In this document: in pieces, positions 14,272-64,000 of the stretch
Position numbering within the stretch: position 1 is the first letter of the stretch
Layout of the letters: each line of letters opens with the position of its first letter
Assembly: GCA_005883625.1 (NCBI GenBank)
Contig: VBDU01000071.1
Location: forward strand, 89,439 to 153,438
DNA from: Chloroflexota bacterium
Lineage (GTDB): Bacteria > Chloroflexota > Limnocylindria > P2-11E
DNA length: 64,000 bases
Direction: 5' to 3'
The notes under the pieces: generated by a model
Database searches by the model: none
Told to the model about the DNA's origin: nothing
What the model saw: the letters and a program-made list of their open reading frames with translations, nothing else
Program-made: the position numbers and the translations under genes

Positions 14272-14380
14272 TTCATATACTCCGCGCACGAAGGAGCCGA
14301 CCCGCCTACCACGAGACAGCGACGATCTCGACACGCAGTTCGACGCCATCGTCGACACGCTGCGTCGTGACGTCCGCCGT

Positions 14381-15283
14381 TTGCGCCAGCAGGTCGAACG
14401 CTTCGGGAAGGCCTACCACAAGCAGGCGGAGGCGCTGACCCGCCGTGCCGACACCGAGCTCGACGAGACGACCGCGCGTGCGAACCGCCGCCTCAAGCAG
14501 CTCCGGCTGGTCGTCCAGCACATCGAATCGACCGCGGCCTACCTCCTCGGCACCGGGATCGGTCCGGCGGAGCAGGTCGACGACGAGCAGATCGAGATGG
14601 CGCAGCGCGTCCTCGAGAGCCTCGAGGCCGAGCGCGAGCGGCTGTATCGCGACGTCCACGACGGGCCCGCGCAGGTCCTCGCGAACGCGATCTTCGAGGT
14701 CGAGTACCTCGAGCGCGTCGCCGAGCGGGCGTCGTCGGAGGTGCGGCAGACGCTCCGCTCCGAGCTGTCCGGCCTCAAGGGGCAGTTCCGCTCGTCGCTC
14801 GACTCGGTGCGCGCGATGATCTACGACCTTCGTCCCCCCGAGCTCAGCGAGCTCCCGCTCGCGGAGGCGATGCGCAACTACGGGAGCGAGTGGGAATCCC
14901 GCTGCGGTATCAAGGTCGCGAGCACGCTCGACACGGCCGAGACCGGCCTCACGCCTACGGCGGAGCTCGCGATATATCGCGTCATGCAGGAGGCCCTGCA
15001 GAACGTCCACAAGCACGCACGCGCGACGAGCGTCGGCGTCAACTGGTCGCGCTCGAACCGGACCTGGGTGCTCCACGTCACCGACGACGGCGCCGGCTTC
15101 GACATCGTGAAGGCGGCGCGACGTCAGAAGTCGGTGGGGCTCCTCTCCATGCGCGAGCGCGCCGAGCTCATCGGCGGCACGCTGCAGATCCAGTCGACGC
15201 CCGGGAAGGGGACCGCGGTGACGCTGCTCCTTCCGACCGAACAGACGATGGAACGACTCCGGAAGGTGGAGGCCGATACGTGA
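14381..15283 (+). CDS. cytoplasmic HisKA_3 sensor histidine kinase (DegS-like, no TM); start uncertain
   Basis: H-box RDVHDGPAQ, N-box QEALQNVHKHA, G1 DDGAGFD and G2 GLLSMRERAELIGG are all present. Coiled-coil N-terminus. An AAGGAG site at 14291 has no canonical start within 80 nt; the first in-frame canonical start is TTG 14381. Confidence 0.6.
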   Translation: MRQQVERFGKAYHKQAEALTRRADTELDETTARANRRLKQLRLVVQHIESTAAYLLGTGIGPAEQVDDEQIEMAQRVLESLEAERERLYRDVHDGPAQVLANAIFEVEYLERVAERASSEVRQTLRSELSGLKGQFRSSLDSVRAMIYDLRPPELSELPLAEAMRNYGSEWESRCGIKVASTLDTAETGLTPTAELAIYRVMQEALQNVHKHARATSVGVNWSRSNRTWVLHVTDDGAGFDIVKAARRQKSVGLLSMRERAELIGGTLQIQSTPGKGTAVTLLLPTEQTMERLRKVEADT

Positions 15284-15984
15284 GCGAAAAGAGCGAGCGG
15301 GCGATCCGGATCCTGATCGCCGACGCCAGTCGGATCACGACCATGGGGATCCGTCAGGTGCTGGAGAAGGAACAGGACTTCGAGATCGTCGGTATCGCCG
15401 GCGACGGCGAGGAGGCCGTGGCGAAGACGAACGAGCTCGAGCCGGACGTCCTCGTCATCGAGGTCGACCTGCCCCGGCTGTCGGGCATCAAAGCGACCCA
15501 GCGCGTGCGGCGCGAGCTGCCCGCCGTCGGCGTCATCATCCTCACCGCCCAGGACCAGGAGCAGATCCTGTTCGAGGCCATCCGCGCGGGCGCGGCAGCG
15601 TATCTTCACAAGGACTGCGAGCCGACCGAGCTCGTCGACGCCATCCGCAAAGTGCGCAGCGGGCAGTTCATCATCAACGAGAAGATCTTCAGCCGGCCCG
15701 CCGTCGCGTCGAAGGTGCTCGCCGAGTTCCGCGAGCTCTCGGTGTACGGGCCGGGCTCGACGCACGTCTTCGCGCCGCTCTCCCCGCGCGAGGTGCAGAT
15801 CCTGGACAACATCGCCCAGGGCATGACGAACAAGGAGGTGGCGTACGCACTGGCCATCTCCGAGCAGACGGTGAAGAATCACATGTCGAGCATCCTGCGG
15901 AAGCTGTCGGTGAACGACCGCACGCAGGCCGTCGTCTACGCCATCCGGCAAGGGTGGATCAAGGGTCCGGAGATAGGCAATTGA
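15280..15984 (+). CDS. NarL/FixJ-family response regulator (REC + LuxR HTH)
   Basis: GTGA overlap start. Receiver motifs LIADAS..., VIEVDLP and T/K residues, with C-terminal LuxR HTH EVQILDNIAQGMTNKEVAYALAISEQTVKNHM. Confidence 0.85.
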   Translation: MSEKSERAIRILIADASRITTMGIRQVLEKEQDFEIVGIAGDGEEAVAKTNELEPDVLVIEVDLPRLSGIKATQRVRRELPAVGVIILTAQDQEQILFEAIRAGAAAYLHKDCEPTELVDAIRKVRSGQFIINEKIFSRPAVASKVLAEFRELSVYGPGSTHVFAPLSPREVQILDNIAQGMTNKEVAYALAISEQTVKNHMSSILRKLSVNDRTQAVVYAIRQGWIKGPEIGN

Positions 15985-55387: not shown

Positions 55388-55918
55388 GTGAGCCTGCTGA
55401 ACCAAAAGGCCCGGTCGCTCGGCGCGGCGCTCCTCGCCGTCGCCCTTCTCGTCGGCGCCCTGCCGACGACCGGTATCACGGCGGCCGCGCCGTCGCCGGC
55501 GGTCGGCACGACGCTGCTGGCGGGCACCACGCTGGTGACTGGCGCCGGCTCGGGCGTCTTCCCTGGCGGCGCCGTCTGGGGCGGCGTTGCGCTCAGCGGC
55601 GGGTCGTTCGGACAGGGTGTGGCGGTCTTCGGTGACGGCACCGCGAGGGGAGACTTCCAGATGATCCTCGCGGGGACGAACGTGCTCGGCGTCGCGACGA
55701 AGATCCTCGTGGTCGGCTGGGTGACGGCCGGGGCGGCGAACCCCGATGGGAGCGCGAGCATCAGTGGGACGTGCCGGGTGGACATGCAGGACGGCACGGT
55801 GCCGTCGACCGGTGTCCCCTTCACCGCGGCGATCACGACCGGCGGCCTCCAGCTGACCGTCGGGGCGACGGCCCTCCCGACCCTGGTGAAAAGCGCGGGC
55901 TGGATCTACCTCGAGTAG
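55388..55918 (+). CDS. secreted Gly/Thr/Ala-rich hypothetical protein
   Basis: Signal peptide LLAVALLVGALP, low-complexity G/T/A-rich mature region. Confidence 0.5.
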   Translation: MSLLNQKARSLGAALLAVALLVGALPTTGITAAAPSPAVGTTLLAGTTLVTGAGSGVFPGGAVWGGVALSGGSFGQGVAVFGDGTARGDFQMILAGTNVLGVATKILVVGWVTAGAANPDGSASISGTCRVDMQDGTVPSTGVPFTAAITTGGLQLTVGATALPTLVKSAGWIYLE

Positions 55919-55934
55919 CCGGCCGGGTCCGGCG

Positions 55935-58900
55935 TCACGGTGCGGTGGCGACGGACGAGCGTCGGCGTGACTTCCACACGCGGATCCCGAGCGGCAGCGT
56001 CGGCGCGAGGAGTAGCAGGCCCGCGACGCCTTCGGGGACGATCGTCGCGGTCATAAAGCGCGAGGGGAACGTCGAGGTGCCGGCGGAGAAGAACGAGTTG
56101 TTGCAGTTGTTTCCGGGGCTCGTGAAGGTGACGCTGAACTGAAGGCGGTCGTTCGTGACGAACGTCGCCGCCAGGCTCGCGAACGTGACCGCGATCGGCG
56201 TGACAGGGGTGTTCGGGGCGAGGCTGGTGGAGCCGGTCCCCAGCGACGTGGTCGTCGCGGTCGCGGCGTGATACCAGAGGAGCGCGAAGCTGACGTTGCA
56301 CGTCTTCGAGGTGCTGTTGTTCCACATGTAGACGCTGGTGCTCGTCGTGCCCGCTCCGAGGGCCATCCCGGTGGTGAACGTGTCGGAGCAGAAGGTGTCC
56401 TTGACGCCGGCCCCGCCGGGGAAGCTGAAGCTGCCCGCCGCCGTCGGCGCCGTCTGGTACATGTCGTACGCCCCGGCGCATGCGAACGTCGTCTTCGCAT
56501 CGGAGAGGTAGAAGGTGCTCGACGTGCCCGCGGACGCGTCGGCCGGAACCGCGTTCGCGAGGAACACGACGTTCACCGAGAGTCCGAGCGCGAACGCAAG
56601 GAGCGCCGCGGTGAGGCGCCGGCGGAGGCGTAGCCAGCCGAAGACGAGCAGCGCCAGCGGTACGGCGGTCCCGAGCACGGCGGGGACCGCGTAGTCGGTC
56701 GGCTCGCGTGCGCCCGACGCGCTCGCTGCCTGCACCGAGAGCGCGCCGACGGTGATGATGCCGGCCGCGAGGAGCACGAGGACCGACATGACGGCGATCC
56801 GGACGCCGAGCGAGCGCCTCGCGTGCGGCCGCCGGCGCGTCGGCAGCTCCCACGGCAGGAGGCGCGCCAACCGGAAGGGATCGAGCGCTTCCGTGACGCG
56901 CCCGGACTTCGGCGTCCTGACCCAGCCGCCCTCGTCTCGTTCGAAGAGCGCCTTGAGCGAGGCGTAGGCCTGGAAGGGCACGAGCAGCCAGGACAGGCCG
57001 ACGAACGACAGGATCCCCGCGGCGTCGCGGCGCAGCGAGCCCTCGAGCAGTCATGAGCGGCAGGGCCAGGGCGTTGGACACGATGAGCGACCAGCCGAAG
57101 ACTTCTCCCCACATGGGCAGCTTCTGGTGGAACACGAAGGTGCCGAGCAGCCAGGTGACCGTCCCGAAGCTAAAGAGCACCGACTGCAGGTAGTAGGGGG
57201 CGTAAAAGCAGAACTCGAGCTTCTCCTTGAAGCTCAGATTGGGCGAGCTGATCACCTGGAAGAAGTACTTCTTCACGTTGTAGGTGTGGCCCTCGGCCCA
57301 GCGCATGCGCTGCTTGATGAGCCGCCGGACCGTGCTCACGCACTCCGCGGGGGCCTGGATGTAGGGGGTGTAGAGCACCTTGTACCCCGCCAGGTAGAGG
57401 CGAATGGTCAGCTCCCAGTCCTCGGTGATGGACGTGCTCCAGCCGAGCTTGCGCAAGACGTCGGCGCGGATCATGTAGACCGAGCCCGAGATCATCTTCA
57501 TGGCGCCGAAGAGCTCCTGCCCGGTGCGCTCGAGCACGTAGCTGCCGGCGAACTCGGCACGCACGCCCTTGGTGATCCAGTTCTCGCTGGCGTTGAGCAT
57601 GTGCCACTGGTAGCCCTGCACTGCCGCCAGGCGGTCGCCGTTCTGCGGCACCCCGCTCGCGCTCGACGCGTGGCGCTCGGCGCCCTTTGGCCTTGCCGCC
57701 AGGCGGCCGAAGTAGTCGAGGAAATGCCAGATCGCGTCCGCCGGCGGCACGAAGTCCGCGTCGAAGATGAGCACGTACTCGGTCCGTGGGTTCATCCGCC
57801 CGAGCGCTTCCTGCAGCGCGCCGCCCTTGAAGCCCTTGCGGCTCTCGCGGTGGAGGACGCGGACGCGCGGGTGGTCATCCCAGCGCTTCAGGATCTCGAC
57901 CGTCTCGTCGGTCGAGTCGTCGGCGACGATGACCTCGTAGTTCTCGTAGTCGAACGAGGTGCAGGCCTCCAACAGCCTGTCGACGACGCGGGCCTCGTTG
58001 TAGAGCGCCACCTGCACGGAGATGAATGGCTGGCGTTCGGCCGGCAGGCGCAGCTCGCCGAGGCGCTGCCAGGGATCGGTCGCCATGACCGAGCCCCCCT
58101 CGTCGAGCTTGTCGCCACGCAGGGTGCGGTATCCCGAGCGGTGCTGGCTGCCTGAGTGCGCGCCCTTCGCTTCGCCGCTCGCCCTCAGTCCATACCCCGC
58201 CTCATCGCCGTCGGCATTCCCAGCGCGGTCCGCGCGCTGGCCCCGGTTCTTGCGCGGGAGGAGCCGCACCGAGTCGCCGAAGAGCGCGAGCAACAGCACG
58301 CTCGCGCTCGTGACGTAGTACTTCAGCGCGTACACGAAAAACAGGAAGCCGCAGACGAGCGCGAGCAGCGAGAGGCCAAAGCGCGGTTGGAGCGCGTCGC
58401 GGAACAGGAACGCGAAGCCGCCGAGCCAGACGATCCCGATGACCGCTATGAGCACGTTGGTCTCGAGGCGGCTCGGGATGTCTCCCAGCGCGACAACGGG
58501 CGCCGGCGCGCCCGAGCCCCAGGCGCGCGCAAGGGTCTCGTCCACCTCATCGGCAGTCGCGGTCACCACACTGAGCTTGAGTCGCGTCAGGCGCTGCGCC
58601 TCGGCGAGCGCCGCGAGGTCGAGCGGATCGGCCATCGCGAGGACGCCGTCACCGCCGGTCGCCGCTGTCACGACCACGCGCATGCCGCGTGCGATGTCCA
58701 CGGGCAGCAAGCGCGCGGCGTCGCGCTCGACCGGATCGACCAGGCGCGGGGAAGAGATGCGCGACTCGGTCGGGTCGATCGGCGCGGCGATCTCGGGGTA
58801 CGGGGCCAGCGACACGAGCGGCGTGCCGCTCGCGCGAGCGAGGACGTCGGCGAGCTCGGCCTGTGCGACGAGACCGAGGCGGGTCAGTGTGGCGCCGAGC

Positions 58901-59388
58901 GATTCGCCGGCGCCCGCTCTCGCCAGAGCGTCGTCGACCTGCGCCTCGGTCAGCGCGCGGCTGCCGAGCAGGAGCTCGATGACGCGGCGCCAGTCGGGCC
59001 GAAGTCCGCTCAGCCGCCGGCGAGTGACCAGGGCCGCACCGGTCGCATGGACCGCGCGCCGCAGCTCGTCAGCGGGCGCGTCCTTTTGCACGTAGGTGGT
59101 GGCGCCAGCCGCGAGCGCGAGATCGCGCGAACCGGGGTCGACGGTGAGGAACACGATCCCGATCTCGGGGAGCTCGCTCGCAAGGATGCGCGCGACGTCG
59201 AGGCCCGACAGCCCGGGCATGATGTTGTCGAGGAGGATGAGATCTGGTCGGAGCTTCCGGGCCAGTGCGAGCGCGCTCGGGCCATCGGTCGCTTCGCCGA
59301 CAACGCTGATCGCCGGGTCCGCATCGAGGATCTTGCGGACGCCTTCGCGGACCAGACGCTGATCGTCTGCGATGAGGACGCGCGTCAC
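55935..59388 (-). CDS. REC + MshEN-like (GspE-N-type) + GT2 processive synthase (BcsA/cellulose-synthase-like; D,D,D,QxxRW); apparent frameshift near 57020-57055 joining two reading frames (possible pseudogene or sequencing error)
   Basis: GTG 59388 with AAGGAG 11 nt upstream. Receiver LIADDQ...LILLDNIMPG...T...K. Tandem MshEN-like helices (LLGSRALTEAQVDDALARAG / LTRLGLVAQAELADVLARAS). GT2 motifs DDSTDET, FDADF and QRMRWAEG. A gating-loop-like WVRTPK and further TMs continue only in the other frame (track ORF 55935..56981). The original frame carries on as Arg-rich junk to 55906. Confidence 0.6.
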
Positions 59389-59553
59389 TGCCCGGCTCGC
59401 TCCTTGTATGTCGCCCGCTTGGCGGGCGTGCGAGCAGTGTTCGTTCTGTGCGCTTCCGGCAGGTCCCGCCATCGGGGGATTCCCGGGCCGAATTCCCACC
59501 GTCCTGACAGGGCGGTGCGCTATTGAGACGCGCCCGCTACCGGGCCCCGGCCG

Positions 59554-60534
59554 CTACGGCCGCATGCGCTCCCGCGGGACGACGACGCGCACCGTCGTAC
59601 CGGCGCCTGGCCGGCTCTGGACCTTGATGACGCCGCCCAGGAACGCGATCCGCTCGCGCATCACGAGGAGTCCGAATGCGCCCGCTCCTGGGCGCACCTC
59701 GCCCCACTGCTCGATCGCGAAGCCGCGGCCGTCATCCGCGACGACGATCTCGAGCATGTCCGGCGTCGTGAGGAGCGCGAGCCGGACCTCGTGCGCGGCG
59801 GCGTGGCGCCGCACGTTGCGGAGCGCCTCGAGCGCGACCGCGTAGAGCGAGGACTCCGCGTCGGGCACGAGCGGGCCCGGGTCGTCCATCGCCTCTTCCA
59901 GCGCCCACCCCGCCGTCGCCGCGATCTCGCGCGCCGCGACGGACAGCGCCGCGACGAGCCCGAGGTCATCGAGCGTCGCCGGGCGCACGGCGCCAAGGAT
60001 GTCGCGCGTCGCGCGGATCGCGCGACGCAGGAGCGCCACCGCCTGTGCGATCTGCTCGTTCTCGACCCCCGCGCTTTGCAGCTGGCCGTGCGCCGAGACG
60101 AGGATCGGCGCGAGCTCGTCGTGGAGGTCGCGCGCGAGCGTGCGTCGCAGCTCCTCCTCCTGTGTGAGGAGCTGACCGGCGAACCGCTTGAGGTCGCCGA
60201 AGAGCGTGAGGCGATCGATAGAGAATGCCGCCTGCTCCGCGAGGATGCGCAGGAAGGAGACGGCCTCGTCGCCCGGATGACCGGACTGGCGGTTCACGTT
60301 GAGCACGCCGATCGTCTTCGCCCCGACGAGGAGGGGAAGACAGATCGCGAACTCCACGTCCTTGGTGTACGGCGTGCGCAGCTCCGTGGCGGCGGGGCCC
60401 TCCAGGATGATCGGGGCCTTCCGCTCGAGCGCCTGCCACGAGATCGACGACCCCACCGGGACGCGCGTTCCCTCGAGGCGGTCGCCGCGGCCGGTGCGGA
60501 CCACGAGCGCGTCGCCGGGTGGATCGACGGTCAT
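59554..60534 (-). CDS. GAF-domain HisKA_3 sensor histidine kinase
   Basis: Short GAF (...ICLPLLVGAKTIGVLNV...), H-box ARDLHDELAP, N-box EALRNVRRHA and G1 DDGRGF. Confidence 0.8.
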   Translation of the reverse strand: MTVDPPGDALVVRTGRGDRLEGTRVPVGSSISWQALERKAPIILEGPAATELRTPYTKDVEFAICLPLLVGAKTIGVLNVNRQSGHPGDEAVSFLRILAEQAAFSIDRLTLFGDLKRFAGQLLTQEEELRRTLARDLHDELAPILVSAHGQLQSAGVENEQIAQAVALLRRAIRATRDILGAVRPATLDDLGLVAALSVAAREIAATAGWALEEAMDDPGPLVPDAESSLYAVALEALRNVRRHAAAHEVRLALLTTPDMLEIVVADDGRGFAIEQWGEVRPGAGAFGLLVMRERIAFLGGVIKVQSRPGAGTTVRVVVPRERMRP

Positions 60535-60676: not shown

Positions 60677-61324
60677 TCAGGCGGTGGCGGATTCGACGAG
60701 GCCGTTGCGGACCGCGTAGATCGCGGCCTGCGTGCGATCGGAGACGTTGAGCTTCTCGAGGATCGCGGCGACGTGGCTCTTCACCGTCTCCGGCGAGAGG
60801 ACGAGCCGCTCTGCGATCTCACGGTTCGAGAGACCCTCCGCGACGAGGGCGAGGATCTCGCGCTCGCGCTTGGTGAGGTTCTTCGCCGCCGGCGGCACGG
60901 GCCCCGTCGGCTTCATCTCGCTGAGCATGCCCTTGAGCATCTGCGATTCGATGAACGCGCCCCCGGAGGCGACCTGACGGATCGCATCCACGAGCTCGTC
61001 CTTCGACACGTCCTTCAAGAGATATCCGGCGGCGCCGGCGCGGACCGCTTCCTTGAGATACGCGGGGTTGTCGTGCATCGTGACCATGATCACGGCGGTG
61101 CGCGGCCGCTCCTCTTTTATCCGTTTCGTGGCCTCGAGCCCGTCCATGTCGGGCATCCGAACGTCCATGAGCACGACGTCGGGAAGCTCTTTGCGCGCGA
61201 TCTCGAGGGCCTCGCGCCCGGTGCGCGCTTCGCCCACGAGCGTGAGGTCGTCGTTCTTGGCGAGCATCGCGGCGATGCCCTGCCGCACGAGCTCGTGGTC
61301 GTCGACGAGCATGACCCGTGTCAT
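60677..61324 (-). CDS. NarL/FixJ-family response regulator
   Basis: MLVDDHELV...VVLMDVRMPDMDG, then a LuxR HTH. Confidence 0.9.
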   Translation of the reverse strand: MTRVMLVDDHELVRQGIAAMLAKNDDLTLVGEARTGREALEIARKELPDVVLMDVRMPDMDGLEATKRIKEERPRTAVIMVTMHDNPAYLKEAVRAGAAGYLLKDVSKDELVDAIRQVASGGAFIESQMLKGMLSEMKPTGPVPPAAKNLTKREREILALVAEGLSNREIAERLVLSPETVKSHVAAILEKLNVSDRTQAAIYAVRNGLVESATA

Positions 61325-61394
61325 CGCCTGCGGATTCTACGGTCGGATGTCGGGGGACTCCGTTCCCGGCTGCTGTCCCTCGCGAGATCGCGCA

Positions 61395-61919
61395 TCAATA
61401 CCGCGCGATATAGAGGATGTAGAGCAGCGCGATGACCACGATCGCGGCGGCTACGCGCACGGCGAGTCCGCCCGGCGCGCGCACGCCGCCGGTGACTTCG
61501 GGGACGTGCACCACGCCATCGATCGCCTTGGCGAGGTCGCCGCCGCTCGCGTCCTTGCGGACCCACCCCCGCATGTCGTCGAGCCGAGCGCTGAGCGCCC
61601 GCGCGGAAGCCTCGTCACCGGAGAGGACGAGGCTCGGCACGCCGAGGACGAAGCTCGAGCCGTCGGTGAGCAGCGTTCCATCGACGAGCGCCACGTCCGC
61701 GGACCAGGCGGGGCGGAGGGCGACGATCTCGCCGGGGCGCGAGAGCCGGCGCACGTCGTAGCGGCCCTCGAGGGCGAGCAGTGTCTCGAGACCGCTCGCG
61801 ATCGCGGGATGGGCGCTCACGAGGGCGACCTTTACCCTGCCGACCGCTCGATTATCCGCCTTGTCGCCGCTCGAGACCCATGTAGGGCTCGCCGACAGGC
61901 CCCTCCTACCAACCTCCAT
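61395..61919 (-). CDS. pseudo-receiver (NarL-type REC lacking the acidic pocket) with C-terminal TM anchor
   Basis: VKVALVSAHPAIASGLETLL (DD replaced by SA)...DVALVDGTL...WVRKD, and a C-terminal VAAAIVVIALLYILYIA. This is the C-terminal part of the 740-aa track ORF, whose upstream part is Arg/Asp-rich junk. Confidence 0.45.
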   Translation of the reverse strand: MEVGRRGLSASPTWVSSGDKADNRAVGRVKVALVSAHPAIASGLETLLALEGRYDVRRLSRPGEIVALRPAWSADVALVDGTLLTDGSSFVLGVPSLVLSGDEASARALSARLDDMRGWVRKDASGGDLAKAIDGVVHVPEVTGGVRAPGGLAVRVAAAIVVIALLYILYIARY

Positions 61920-61964
61920 CTGGAGACCGATGCCCCGTAACCCCCCAGAAACGACTGTTACCGC

Positions 61965-64000
61965 GTGCCGACGCGCATCTTGATCGCCGACGACCACCTC
62001 GCGGTCCGCGAGGGCCTGCGTTCGCTCCTCGAGCCGGAATCGGACTTCGAGATCATCGGCGAGGCCGCGGACGGGAACGAGGCCGCCCAGAAGGCTCTCG
62101 ACCTCAAGCCGGACCTCATCGTCCTCGACAACTCGATGCCCGGTATGACCGGCCTCGAGGTCGCACGGATCCTTCGCGCGAACCTTCCTCAGACCAAGAT
62201 CGTCTTCCTCACGCTCGATCCAGGCATCCGCGATCTCGCGCTCGCGACCGGCGCGGTCGCGCACGTCGCGAAGGACGTCCCGCCGCAGGAGATCATGCGC
62301 GTGGTCCGCGCGGCTGCGGGCCTGCGACCGCAGCGTGCGACGAGCGGCAACGGTCACGCCGTCCCGTCCCAGACGAAGCTCGCCGAGCTCGTCGTCGCGG
62401 AGCACCTCCTCACGACCCAGCAGGTGCAGGACGTCGAGGGCGCCCGCGAGAAGCGACAGACGCTCGCGAACGCGCTGCTTCGCTCCGGCCTCGTTCCCGA
62501 GGAGAAGCTCGCCGACGTCTTCGCCCGCGCGAGCGGCCAGCGGCTCATGTCCCTCCGTCCCGAAGCAGCGTCGAGCGAGGCACGCGGGCGCACTCACGCG
62601 AAGGACCCGATCGACCCGACGGTCGCGCGGCAGCTCCCGCGTCGCTTCTGCGAGCAACGCGCGATCGTGCTCGTCGAGCTGAAGCGCGCCCAGGCGACCC
62701 TCGCGATGGCGGATCCATTCGATGAGACCACGGCGAACGAGGTCCGCGACATGCTCGGCGGCGTCGAGCTCAGCGTCGTCACCGCGACGGTGAGCGACGT
62801 CCGCGACGCGATCCAGCGCTCGCAGGCCCCCGCCGTCGTGCCGCTGGTGGCGGTCGCACCGACGATGCACATCCGTCGCCACCGCGCCTTCCCGCTCGTC
62901 GCGGCGATCGCCGCCGCGTTCCTTCTCTTCGCGACGGGGATCGGCGTCGTCCTCACGCAGGGGACCGCGACCGACGCCCGCGCGAATCTCACGATCTTCC
63001 AGGGCGCGGTCGAGATCCGTCACGGCGCGGGGCCGTTCGTCGCGGCGTCCACGAACGATCTCCTCCGCCAGGGTGACACGGTCCGGACGTCGGCGAACGC
63101 GAACGCCGCGCTCGCGTTCTTCGAGAGCTCGATCGTCGTCCTTGAGCCGGGTACGGAGGTCGAGGTCGTCTCGCTGCGTCAGATCGCGAGCGGTCGCGAC
63201 ATCGACGTGGTCATGCGCCAGACGAGCGGCATGACCTGGCACGTGGTCTCGCATCCGCTCGGCGCGGGCGCGCGCTACGCCGTCCTCACGCCGTCGTCGA
63301 CGAGCACGGTCCAGGGCACTGCCTTCCAGGTCGCTGTCGATGCGCGCGGCATGACCACGGTCACGACGACGGACGGGGTCGTGCACACGCAGGGCGCGGA
63401 CGGCGCGAGCGCAGCGCCGGTCGCCGTGAACGCGCAGCAGACGACGACGGTCACCGGTGCCGGACCCGCCACGCCTCAAATGGCGAAGATGCGGACGGTG
63501 ACGTTCGTCCTCGATGCCGGCCGCGACGCGGTCGTCGTGAACGCGGCCGGTGAGTCCGCCGGCGTGAGGGATAACGAGATCGTCCGCTACATCCCGGGAT
63601 CGACCGTTGCCCGGCAAGGCGGCAAGGTCGTCGTGAACCTCCCAGGCAACGAGGACGGTGCCTTCGCGACGATCGTCGCGCCGGCAGGCAGCGCGACGCA
63701 GGTCCAGATCGCGGCCGACCTCAAGTCGCCGGACGGTGGTCCCGTGAGCGCGGTCACCGATCAGCGTTCGATCGATAACGGAGTCGCGCGCACCGGTGTC
63801 AGCGTGATCGGGAACACCGTGGTCCTCACCAGTGCCACGACGATCACCGCGCAGCCCCTCGCCGTGAATCCTCCGCCGGCGCCGACACCGTTCAACCCGC
63901 TCGGCGTGGTACAGAGCTCGCCCCTCGCGATCGGTCCTGCGGGTCCAGCCGGTGTCGCGGGCGTGCCTGGCGCGCCGGGTCCACAGGGTCCGCCTGGTCC
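61965..64000 (+). CDS. REC + MshEN-like + TM + FecR-like + beta-rich region + collagen-like Gly-X-Y repeat protein; 3' end beyond the window
   Basis: GTG 61965. N-terminal 260 aa paralogous to the GT2 fusion (ILIADDHLAVREGL...LIVLDNSMPGMTGLE...; LSVVTATVSDVRDAIQRS). TM AFPLVAAIAAAFLLFATGIGVVL. FecR-like TIFQGAVEIRHGAGPF...LRQGDTVRTSANANAALAFFESSIVVLEPGTEV. The sequence ends GPAGPAGVAGVPGAPGPQGPPG. Confidence 0.7.
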   Translation, partial: MPTRILIADDHLAVREGLRSLLEPESDFEIIGEAADGNEAAQKALDLKPDLIVLDNSMPGMTGLEVARILRANLPQTKIVFLTLDPGIRDLALATGAVAHVAKDVPPQEIMRVVRAAAGLRPQRATSGNGHAVPSQTKLAELVVAEHLLTTQQVQDVEGAREKRQTLANALLRSGLVPEEKLADVFARASGQRLMSLRPEAASSEARGRTHAKDPIDPTVARQLPRRFCEQRAIVLVELKRAQATLAMADPFDETTANEVRDMLGGVELSVVTATVSDVRDAIQRSQAPAVVPLVAVAPTMHIRRHRAFPLVAAIAAAFLLFATGIGVVLTQGTATDARANLTIFQGAVEIRHGAGPFVAASTNDLLRQGDTVRTSANANAALAFFESSIVVLEPGTEVEVVSLRQIASGRDIDVVMRQTSGMTWHVVSHPLGAGARYAVLTPSSTSTVQGTAFQVAVDARGMTTVTTTDGVVHTQGADGASAAPVAVNAQQTTTVTGAGPATPQMAKMRTVTFVLDAGRDAVVVNAAGESAGVRDNEIVRYIPGSTVARQGGKVVVNLPGNEDGAFATIVAPAGSATQVQIAADLKSPDGGPVSAVTDQRSIDNGVARTGVSVIGNTVVLTSATTITAQPLAVNPPPAPTPFNPLGVVQSSPLAIGPAGPAGVAGVPGAPGPQGPPG

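Follow-up and report, generated by a model that had tools for sequence, protein, structure and literature searches.

In the 64,000-nucleotide stretch of Chloroflexota contig VBDU01000071.1 analyzed here (hereafter the window), an open reading frame (ORF) on the minus strand at 61395-61919 is, by its codon statistics, substitution pattern and homologues, a real and conserved coding sequence. Its product combines a domain that, as judged from profile comparisons and a structural model, descends from a NarL/FixJ-type receiver with a single C-terminal helix predicted to anchor it in the membrane. Receiver folds from which one or more of the five catalytic residues are missing are defined as pseudo-receivers (PMC12632262), and this protein is one by its aligned residues: both members of the Asp-Asp (DD) pair are missing while the phospho-acceptor Asp, the Thr/Ser position (as Ser) and the Lys are retained. 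The ORF extends from an ATG at 61919-61917 to a TGA stop at 61397-61395 (174 codons), includes the sequence VSAHP and closes with a hydrophobic stretch, VAAAIVVIALLYILYIARY. It is located between a NarL-type regulator gene (61324-60677, minus strand) and a divergent REC-MshEN-FecR gene that begins at GTG 61965. An initial annotation, prepared from the sequence alone, had described the product as a membrane-anchored, NarL-type pseudo-receiver without an output domain, and most of that description is borne out below.

That the frame is open is by itself no proof of a gene, since ORF 61395-61919 appears in the list of open reading frames as the tail of a 740-codon open minus-strand frame, which is the stop-poor antisense of a GC-rich plus-strand gene. 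The composition of the frame is more informative. GC content at codon positions 1, 2 and 3 is 0.74, 0.53 and 0.87 in the pseudo-receiver ORF, to be compared with 0.69, 0.40 and 0.90 in the flanking regulator and 0.77, 0.48 and 0.92 in the kinase; within the frame, a gene-like third-position GC content (GC3, 0.87-1.0) is found only from about 61840 downward. When codons 28-174 are compared with those of a soil contig that is 97% identical (L032), there are 11 synonymous and 5 non-synonymous differences, and within this lineage the core has no frameshift or stop and keeps all of the invariant family residues intact. A hidden Markov model (HMM) of the family identifies the ORF in the window at E 2.6e-52. 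The initial annotation had raised the prospect that the ORF is an antisense artefact of a high-GC region; codon-position GC, the synonymous bias, at least 715 homologues and 158 related loci lead to the rejection of that idea. The probable true coding region is shorter than the ORF and occupies 61395-61844 on the minus strand, where the family alignments start and where GC3 is 0.87-0.93 from about 61840. It encodes a 149-amino acid family-homologous core and ends with the TGA codon. Residue numbers below refer to this core (adding 25 gives the numbering of the 174-amino acid ORF), and coordinates within the gene are on the minus strand.

Since the protein yields no match to Response_reg (PF00072) in a Pfam scan even at E <= 10, recognition of the fold required profile and structure methods. 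The Pfam scan returned only a sub-threshold VWA_3_C match, and no receiver match was obtained from NCBIfam. The HMM search against Response_reg that the initial annotation had suggested as a check would, taken alone, have led to an incorrect rejection. Pairwise BLASTP with the two neighboring receivers was likewise not significant. From a single sequence, a phmmer search of the Protein Data Bank (PDB) placed DevR first at E 0.011. With a 70-sequence family profile, the PDB matches were ChrA (1.6e-5), DevR (2.1e-5), DesR (1e-4), NarL (1.4e-3) and VraR (4.7e-3); the alignments cover the whole receiver, and the top eleven matches are all response-regulator receiver domains, mostly of the NarL/LuxR type. 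Against 1.8e9 representative proteins, the profile first retrieves about 55 family members and then proteins of 200-240 amino acids aligned end to end, with canonical REC+GerE regulators reached at 1e-7 to 1e-3. Among ten sampled profile matches, Pfam Response_reg is found in seven, five of which have GerE as well, while P0059 and P0022 are without a Pfam family and P0049 has only an HYR-like domain. Alignment of the family to the receivers of this and related loci by hhalign gave a probability of 94.6% (E 7.2e-8 over 114 columns). A first AlphaFold model built from 6 sequences was unusable, with a predicted local distance difference test (pLDDT) score of 54; a model from 122 sequences reached 88.3 and presents the order b1-a1-b2-a2-b3-a3-b4-a4-b5-a5 followed by a C-terminal helix. 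The receiver-like (beta-alpha)5 domain comprises core residues 4-112 (61509-61835) with shortened alpha2 and alpha3 helices, and both the model and hhalign indicate the deletion of about eight residues from the beta3-alpha3 'MPxxDG' region, by which most of that loop and of alpha3 is lost. The profile, hhalign and model results agree on the NarL-type receiver fold that had been proposed.

An audit of the active site was made over 209 distinct family sequences, using hhalign columns against the neighboring regulator to establish equivalent positions. Ser10-Ala11 (ORF Ser35-Ala36; 61812-61817) occupy the Mg-binding DD positions and map to D8-D9 of the regulator. Across the family these two positions are V/T/S/I and A/G/P/S and never acidic, with neither Asp nor Glu observed, which extends to all relatives the replacement first read from VSAHP. 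Asp55 (ORF Asp80; 61680-61682), the phospho-acceptor equivalent of regulator D54, and Lys97 (ORF Lys122; 61554-61556), the equivalent of regulator K104, are each present in 209/209 sequences, and Lys97 is followed by Asp98 to give the 'KD' of the NarL family. Ser75 (ORF Ser100; 61620-61622) maps to regulator T82 and is Ser in 207 sequences and Thr in 2. The initial claim of an altered Thr position is correct in that the residue is Ser, but the change is conservative and retains the hydroxyl. Also invariant are Asp98 (K+1), Trp94 (K-3, the aromatic residue of Y-T coupling), Gly76 (T+1), Arg33 and Trp47, each in 209/209. His12-Pro13, the 'HP' of the NarL-type 'DDHP' motif, are equally constant, and the motif survives as 'x[AG]HP'. 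Among the NarL-type signatures, 'HP' and 'KD' are therefore kept throughout and DD is lost, such that only the metal-binding pair is degenerate. The invariant Asp55 places the protein outside the aspartate-less receiver (ALR) subset, and a canonical receiver would have the DD pair in addition to the Asp, Thr/Ser and Lys seen here. Invariant residues are concentrated in alpha1 (E20, L22 and L23) and, on the beta-to-alpha loop face, at H12, P13, R33, D55, G56, S75, G76, K97 and D98.

The receiver-like domain is followed by a variable, probably disordered linker at core residues 113-125 (61470-61508), where pLDDT falls below 50 at residues 116-125 and both length and sequence vary in the alignment. 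Core residues 126-148, with Tyr149 after them, make up the predicted C-terminal transmembrane helix (61398-61469). It is supported by AlphaFold and by a Kyte-Doolittle 19-residue mean of up to 2.5, and a hydrophobic tail closes the protein in 209/209 relatives. The pseudo-receiver has no Pfam match to a GerE output domain, ending instead in the linker and membrane helix, and no other hydrophobic segment, N-terminal signal or transmembrane segment is present in it. The initial annotation was thus right about both the missing output domain and the C-terminal helix. Together these predictions point to a tail anchor, in which the N-terminal domain would be cytoplasmic and the single C-terminal helix would be inserted in the membrane.

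The size of the family is understated by a single-sequence search, which recovered only 5 relatives from 5.8e9 proteins; pattern-based locus scans and a profile search were needed to recover the members. Scans with back-translated motifs located 24 loci in species-representative genomes and, in the same manner, 134 loci in metagenomes, 80 of which were fetched for study. The 158 loci derive nearly all from Ca. Limnocylindria or soil, and the homologues that they encode are 36-58% identical. From the loci, 96 distinct sequences with lengths of 144-159 amino acids were extracted. At E <= 1e-6, the profile search returned at least 715 proteins; precomputed Pfam domains are absent from all of them, and many carry the IMG name 'DNA-binding NarL/FixJ family response regulator'. 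By these searches the family so far appears almost only in soil Chloroflexota and is restricted nearly to one class. Nearly all of the 24 genome loci are in metagenome-assembled genomes that bear the label Ca. Limnocylindria or Chloroflexota; the two exceptions are L021 (DASPWX010000134.1, Ca. Bathyarchaeia) and L027 (DATLPP010000249.1, Ca. Udaeobacter). Both resemble the paralogue loci of Limnocylindria, down to the kinase and regulator upstream, and mis-binning of contigs is the likely explanation for the labels. Within the window itself, the family profile detects no second copy, and its next match is the adjacent regulator at E 1e-4. A weak match (E 2.8e-3) falls on a receiver-containing ORF at 14371-15981 on the plus strand.

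On the minus strand of the window, the pseudo-receiver is followed in order by the NarL-type regulator, a GAF-HisKA_3-HATPase kinase and a REC-MshEN-glycosyltransferase-2 protein. The regulator (60677-61324) is canonical, with REC and GerE domains at Pfam E 3e-33 and 7e-22. The histidine kinase (59554-60534) has the Pfam architecture GAF-HisKA_3-HATPase_c and appears soluble, as no hydrophobic segment is evident on inspection of the translation. The last gene of this same-strand cluster (55906-59499) encodes the REC-MshEN-glycosyltransferase-2 protein of 1197 amino acids, also assigned by Pfam. On the plus strand, the divergent REC-MshEN-FecR gene (61965-64000) runs off the window; its FecR domain gives way to Gly/Pro-rich sequence at the window edge, and relatives continue into collagen-like repeats (L001 matches Pfam Collagen). 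The two REC-MshEN proteins are paralogous and flank the two-component genes, and all three genuine receivers in the locus have complete active sites. In the protein from 61965, the arginine leading the published cyclic di-GMP-binding MshEN motif appears by eye to be replaced (K and T).

Comparison among loci reveals which of these neighbors are constant. The distinct loci were sorted into 36 orthologue and 60 paralogue loci. For the orthologues, the divergent REC-MshEN gene is found in 26/26 loci with enough flank, so the arrangement noted initially is a conserved one, and the NarL regulator is directly downstream of the pseudo-receiver in 27/30. The paralogues have a different setting: a 190-amino acid protein of unknown function is downstream in 41/51 loci, the divergent upstream gene encodes a DivIVA-domain protein in 34/47, and none of 54 loci has a REC-MshEN neighbor. 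Further along the divergent operon, a GAF-HisKA_3 kinase (22/22 loci) and a NarL-type regulator (17/17) are again present. In a third, paralogue subgroup, a kinase gene is just downstream and a kinase-regulator pair is upstream. Judged by gene order, the whole pseudo-receiver family is associated with NarL-type two-component systems. Two paralogue loci (L113, 5240-8067, and L110, 2-1935) illustrate the layout, in that the paralogue sits between a divergent 571-amino acid DivIVA-domain protein, which heads the kinase-regulator operon, and the 190-amino acid protein, from which it is separated by a 2-nucleotide gap. The latter protein has no match in Pfam or NCBIfam, and an aminotransferase and a class II ribonucleotide reductase come after it. 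At one further paralogue locus (L101, 1930-2790), the frame continues past the hydrophobic segment into a truncated HD_5 (HD-GYP-type) domain. This fusion could be genuine, hinting at cyclic-nucleotide signaling, or could be a chimeric assembly; as a truncated domain on a single short metagenome contig, it is not used as evidence.

The start of the gene was examined by aligning 91 unique DNA sequences over the region that precedes the conserved Lys codon of strand 1. Orthologues usually have a GTG three to four codons before the Lys, with a -10-like hexamer, T[TCG][CTG]AAT, 6-8 nucleotides ahead of the GTG. In 58 of the 91 sequences, which include all of the paralogues and the two closest orthologues (L064 and L068), the start position is instead occupied by ATC. 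The hexamer in this ATC-type set is CATCAT, CAGAAT, GATAAT, TACGAT or CATACT, and its distance to the ATC is 6 nucleotides in 48 sequences, 7 in 9 and 8 in one. The 26 scored canonical-start sequences have the hexamer 6-8 nucleotides before the start position as well, and the 7 remaining rows of the alignment include the three GATAAT sequences of the window lineage. In 20 of the 58 ATC-type sequences, the stretch that runs from the closest in-frame stop upstream to the ATC contains no ATG, GTG or TTG. Over 55 unique ATC-type sequences, each of the three ATC columns has zero entropy; directly downstream, column entropy has a coding periodicity (0.47/0.21/1.05 bits), and upstream it has none (1.31/1.15/1.15). 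Very probably, ATC is the initiation codon of these genes on a leaderless or near-leaderless mRNA, and the pattern suggests AUC-initiated leaderless translation in Ca. Limnocylindria. The non-canonical start may explain why the single-sequence search recovered few relatives, because gene callers assign other starts to these genes.

For the gene in the window, the layout is a GATAAT hexamer (61856-61851), the spacer CGAGCG and then GTC (61844-61842), homologous to CATACT-N6-ATC in L064 and L068. GTC at the start position is seen in the window lineage only (most group A relatives have GTG there, and those of group B have ATC), and it is a candidate non-canonical start on a leaderless mRNA with the hexamer 6 nucleotides upstream. 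The initial annotation had flagged ATG 61919 as an uncertain start; it is probably wrong, and 61844 is the start position of the family. ATG 61919 falls inside an intergenic block of about 100 nucleotides that is conserved in about 30 orthologous loci, and an in-frame stop parts the upstream region from the gene in L001, L002, L037 and L044. The 25-codon extension that it would add (61845-61919) has a GC3 of only 0.73-0.77 and a pLDDT below 50 in the 6-sequence AlphaFold model, and comparison of codons 1-27 with L032 gives 2 non-synonymous and 0 synonymous changes. Reading of the sequence revealed nothing resembling a Shine-Dalgarno or -10 element at a usable distance from this ATG. The extension is probably non-coding promoter or operator DNA. 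The first canonical in-frame start downstream is a GTG at 61818-61820 with AAAGG 8 nucleotides upstream; it would delete strand beta1, whose KV(L/A)LV protein sequence is conserved in all relatives. On balance, initiation at GTC 61844 in this genome is given about an even chance, and initiation at ATG 61919, the next in rank, is considered unlikely on account of the conserved block, the in-frame stops in relatives and the substitution pattern. Use of GTG 61820 is judged improbable, as is a pseudo-receiver that is not translated here at all.

The conserved intergenic block at 61845-61960 is recognizable across all orthologous loci by the motifs CTCGTTT, GGCATCGG, GGA..TTGGT.G.AG, TGTCGCGATTCCCTACA and GCGACAG, with an inverted repeat TGTCG...CGACA lying within TGTCGCGATTCCCTACA and GCGACAG. 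The block is probably a promoter and operator region common to the two divergent genes, and possibly a binding site for a regulator. In the window, L064 and L068, about 45 nucleotides between GCGACA and the start are absent relative to other loci. An Rfam scan of 61250-62050 gave no match. The adjacent regulator gene also has a promoter-like hexamer directly at its start: about 30 related loci have a conserved TAGAAT (or TACAAT, TATCAT) 6-9 nucleotides before its ATG or GTG, and in the window TAGAAT lies 9 nucleotides before the ATG, within 61325-61345 on the minus strand. Apparently, the regulator gene is read from a separate promoter into a leaderless or near-leaderless mRNA and is then not strictly co-transcribed with the pseudo-receiver. 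A scan for the sigma-70 consensus between the two genes detected no promoter, and no terminator was found there.

What might such a protein do? Tentatively, and at a little less than an even chance, the preferred reading is that the tail-anchored pseudo-receiver of about 149 amino acids is a phosphorylation-independent docking module for a two-component partner at the membrane. Its architecture would be an N-terminal cytoplasmic receiver-derived domain, a short flexible linker and a single membrane helix. Phosphotransfer by receivers requires Mg2+ bound by the DD pair. Without either metal ligand, the protein would not catalyze normal phosphotransfer, and because both of the acidic residues are lost, it may be expected to act through contacts. 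Candidate partners are the NarL-type regulator, a receiver from the REC-MshEN proteins, and the soluble GAF-HisKA_3 kinase by way of its DHp domain. Receivers dock onto kinase DHp helices and NarL-type receivers dimerize via alpha1/alpha5, using alpha1 and the beta-to-alpha loop face (PMC12632262). A membrane-tethered look-alike that is not itself phosphorylated could draw the kinase or one of the receivers to the membrane, or sequester it there. Binding would then modulate how the phosphoryl flux of the kinase is split among the three genuine receivers of the locus, and the share of the signal that reaches the glycosyltransferase and surface-protein cluster under its control would rise or fall. 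What the analysis shows is a real gene with its fold, residue pattern, tail helix and conserved neighborhood; partner binding, partner identity and the absence of phosphorylation are inferences, and the functional reading is one of guilt by association. Of the two roles offered in the initial annotation, that of a scaffold is plausible, and that of a phosphatase partner finds no support here.

Several observations weigh against a docking module of this kind. The invariance of Asp55, Ser75, Lys97 and Trp94 would be expected if phosphorylation or ligand chemistry at the site still mattered, and DD substitutions do not always abolish phosphotransfer (PMC12632262). The pseudo-receiver and the regulator each apparently have their own promoter and may not be co-transcribed. 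Between loci whose pseudo-receivers share only about 45-50% identity, the regulators still share about 85%, which argues against a tightly co-evolving interface between the two. Finally, with GTC, ATG and GTG as alternative start codons in the window, full-length expression in this genome is uncertain.

The first of these points leads to the possibility of a receiver that still accepts phosphoryl groups and works as a membrane-located phosphate sink or relay. Asp55 would be phosphorylated by the GAF-HisKA_3 kinase, and phosphoryl groups would be drained or redirected from the NarL regulator and the REC-MshEN proteins. Such a role would fit the retention of Asp55, Lys97, a hydroxyl at position 75 and the Y-T coupling residues, a kinase that is always nearby, and reports that substitution of the DD, T or K residues need not end phosphotransfer (PMC12632262). 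Both metal ligands are nevertheless small or hydrophobic residues in every member, and the beta3-alpha3 loop is about eight residues shorter. By established receiver chemistry the missing metal would be needed for the reaction, and a sink or relay is accordingly regarded as doubtful. A similarly low probability is attached to a pocket remodelled to bind a small anionic ligand, such as a phosphorylated metabolite or a cyclic dinucleotide, independently of metal; the protein would then be a membrane-tethered sensor and not a passive scaffold. Arg33 and Arg96 are only assumed to point into the pocket, no ligand-binding motif is present, and the HD_5 fusion that might hint at a cyclic dinucleotide is confined to a single, possibly chimeric metagenome contig.

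A third alternative, with no better prospects than the preceding two, transfers the function to the helix. The pseudo-receiver would mainly partner the divergent bitopic REC-MshEN-FecR protein within or next to the membrane, or, in the case of the paralogues, other membrane or DivIVA-linked proteins, and the receiver fold would be only a structural spacer. The divergent REC-MshEN gene is indeed the most constant neighbor of the orthologues, and members of the orthologue group share a well-conserved tail helix (VLALVAYLIWLAVY). However, paralogues that have no REC-MshEN neighbor still keep the invariant receiver-face residues, and the helix in the window differs in sequence from those of the other orthologues. 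The weakest alternative is a gene that is decaying or untranslated in this genome, its ancestral start mutated to GTC and its ATG 61919 ORF accidental; the lineage-specific GTC, the frame held open by GC content and the position of the ATG in conserved non-coding DNA would suit it, but the synonymous excess in the core, the lack of a frameshift or stop, the intact invariant residues and the GATAAT still in place make it improbable.

Beyond the docking module, a wider proposal may be put forward as a speculation of low, though appreciable, probability. The protein may represent the first known example of a new class of receiver modules, tail-anchored and without a metal site, that gate NarL-type signaling at the membrane. 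A remodelled basic pocket (His12, Arg33, Arg96 and Lys97 around Asp55) would sense a ligand or partner and not a phosphoryl group, and the family would be translated from leaderless mRNAs starting with AUC (GUC in the window). Pseudo-receivers are common, and their switching and binding partners are largely unknown (PMC12632262). The present family is an unusually clean case, as it has a single domain, a membrane anchor as its sole output, its metal ligands removed, and invariant or near-invariant Asp, Ser, Lys and aromatic residues. Given its fixed position beside a kinase, a regulator and further receivers, the role of an Asp-Lys-Ser triad without Mg2+ could be tested with four to five proteins. 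The family is also a lineage-specific expansion in Ca. Limnocylindria, an abundant and uncultured soil group; its source organisms are almost all known only from metagenomes, and function is inferred. Finally, it exposes a blind spot of annotation, being missed by Pfam and NCBIfam and mislabelled as a DNA-binding regulator in IMG, and many of its members are without an ATG, GTG or TTG start that would include strand 1.

Among known systems, the closest are the NarL/FixJ receivers, represented by DevR/DosR (3c3w), ChrA (4yn8), DesR (4le0), NarL (1a04) and M. tuberculosis NarL (3eul). In comparison with these, the pseudo-receiver is without both Mg-binding Asp residues, its alpha2 and alpha3 helices are shortened, and a C-terminal membrane helix replaces the GerE/LuxR DNA-binding output. 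It is therefore not a NarL/FixJ response regulator, having no GerE, and not a canonical receiver, having no DD pair. Bacterial pseudo-receivers in the sense of PMC12632262 (for example FrzS, Rec1 of ShkA, the N-domains of TadZ/CpaE, the N-domain of KaiA and the GlnR type) are alike in possessing the fold without the full catalytic set and in their presumed action by protein contacts in place of Asp phosphorylation. The protein described here differs from them in being single-domain, membrane-anchored and nearly limited to one class of Chloroflexota. GlnR-type atypical regulators keep the phospho-acceptor Asp, as does this protein. The minor Pfam pseudo-receiver families listed in PMC12632262 (PF06490, PF21155, PF21194, PF21695, PF21714 and PF22368) give no match at E <= 10, and within the searched literature no description of a tail-anchored or membrane-anchored single-domain receiver or pseudo-receiver was found. 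Single-domain regulators that function by binding a partner, such as CheY, DivK in its binding to DivL, and the response regulator subunit of mycobacterial complex I (8e9g chain O), are soluble, have complete active sites and use phosphorylation as the switch, whereas the pseudo-receiver has no metal site and carries its own membrane anchor. LiaF and VraT/YvqF are small membrane accessory proteins that are encoded beside a HisKA_3 kinase and a NarL-type regulator and are expected to modulate that pair. The LiaF-type proteins are not receiver-like, have no sequence or fold relationship to the pseudo-receiver, and partner membrane-bound kinases, whereas the kinase beside the pseudo-receiver is soluble; what the two have in common is their gene context.

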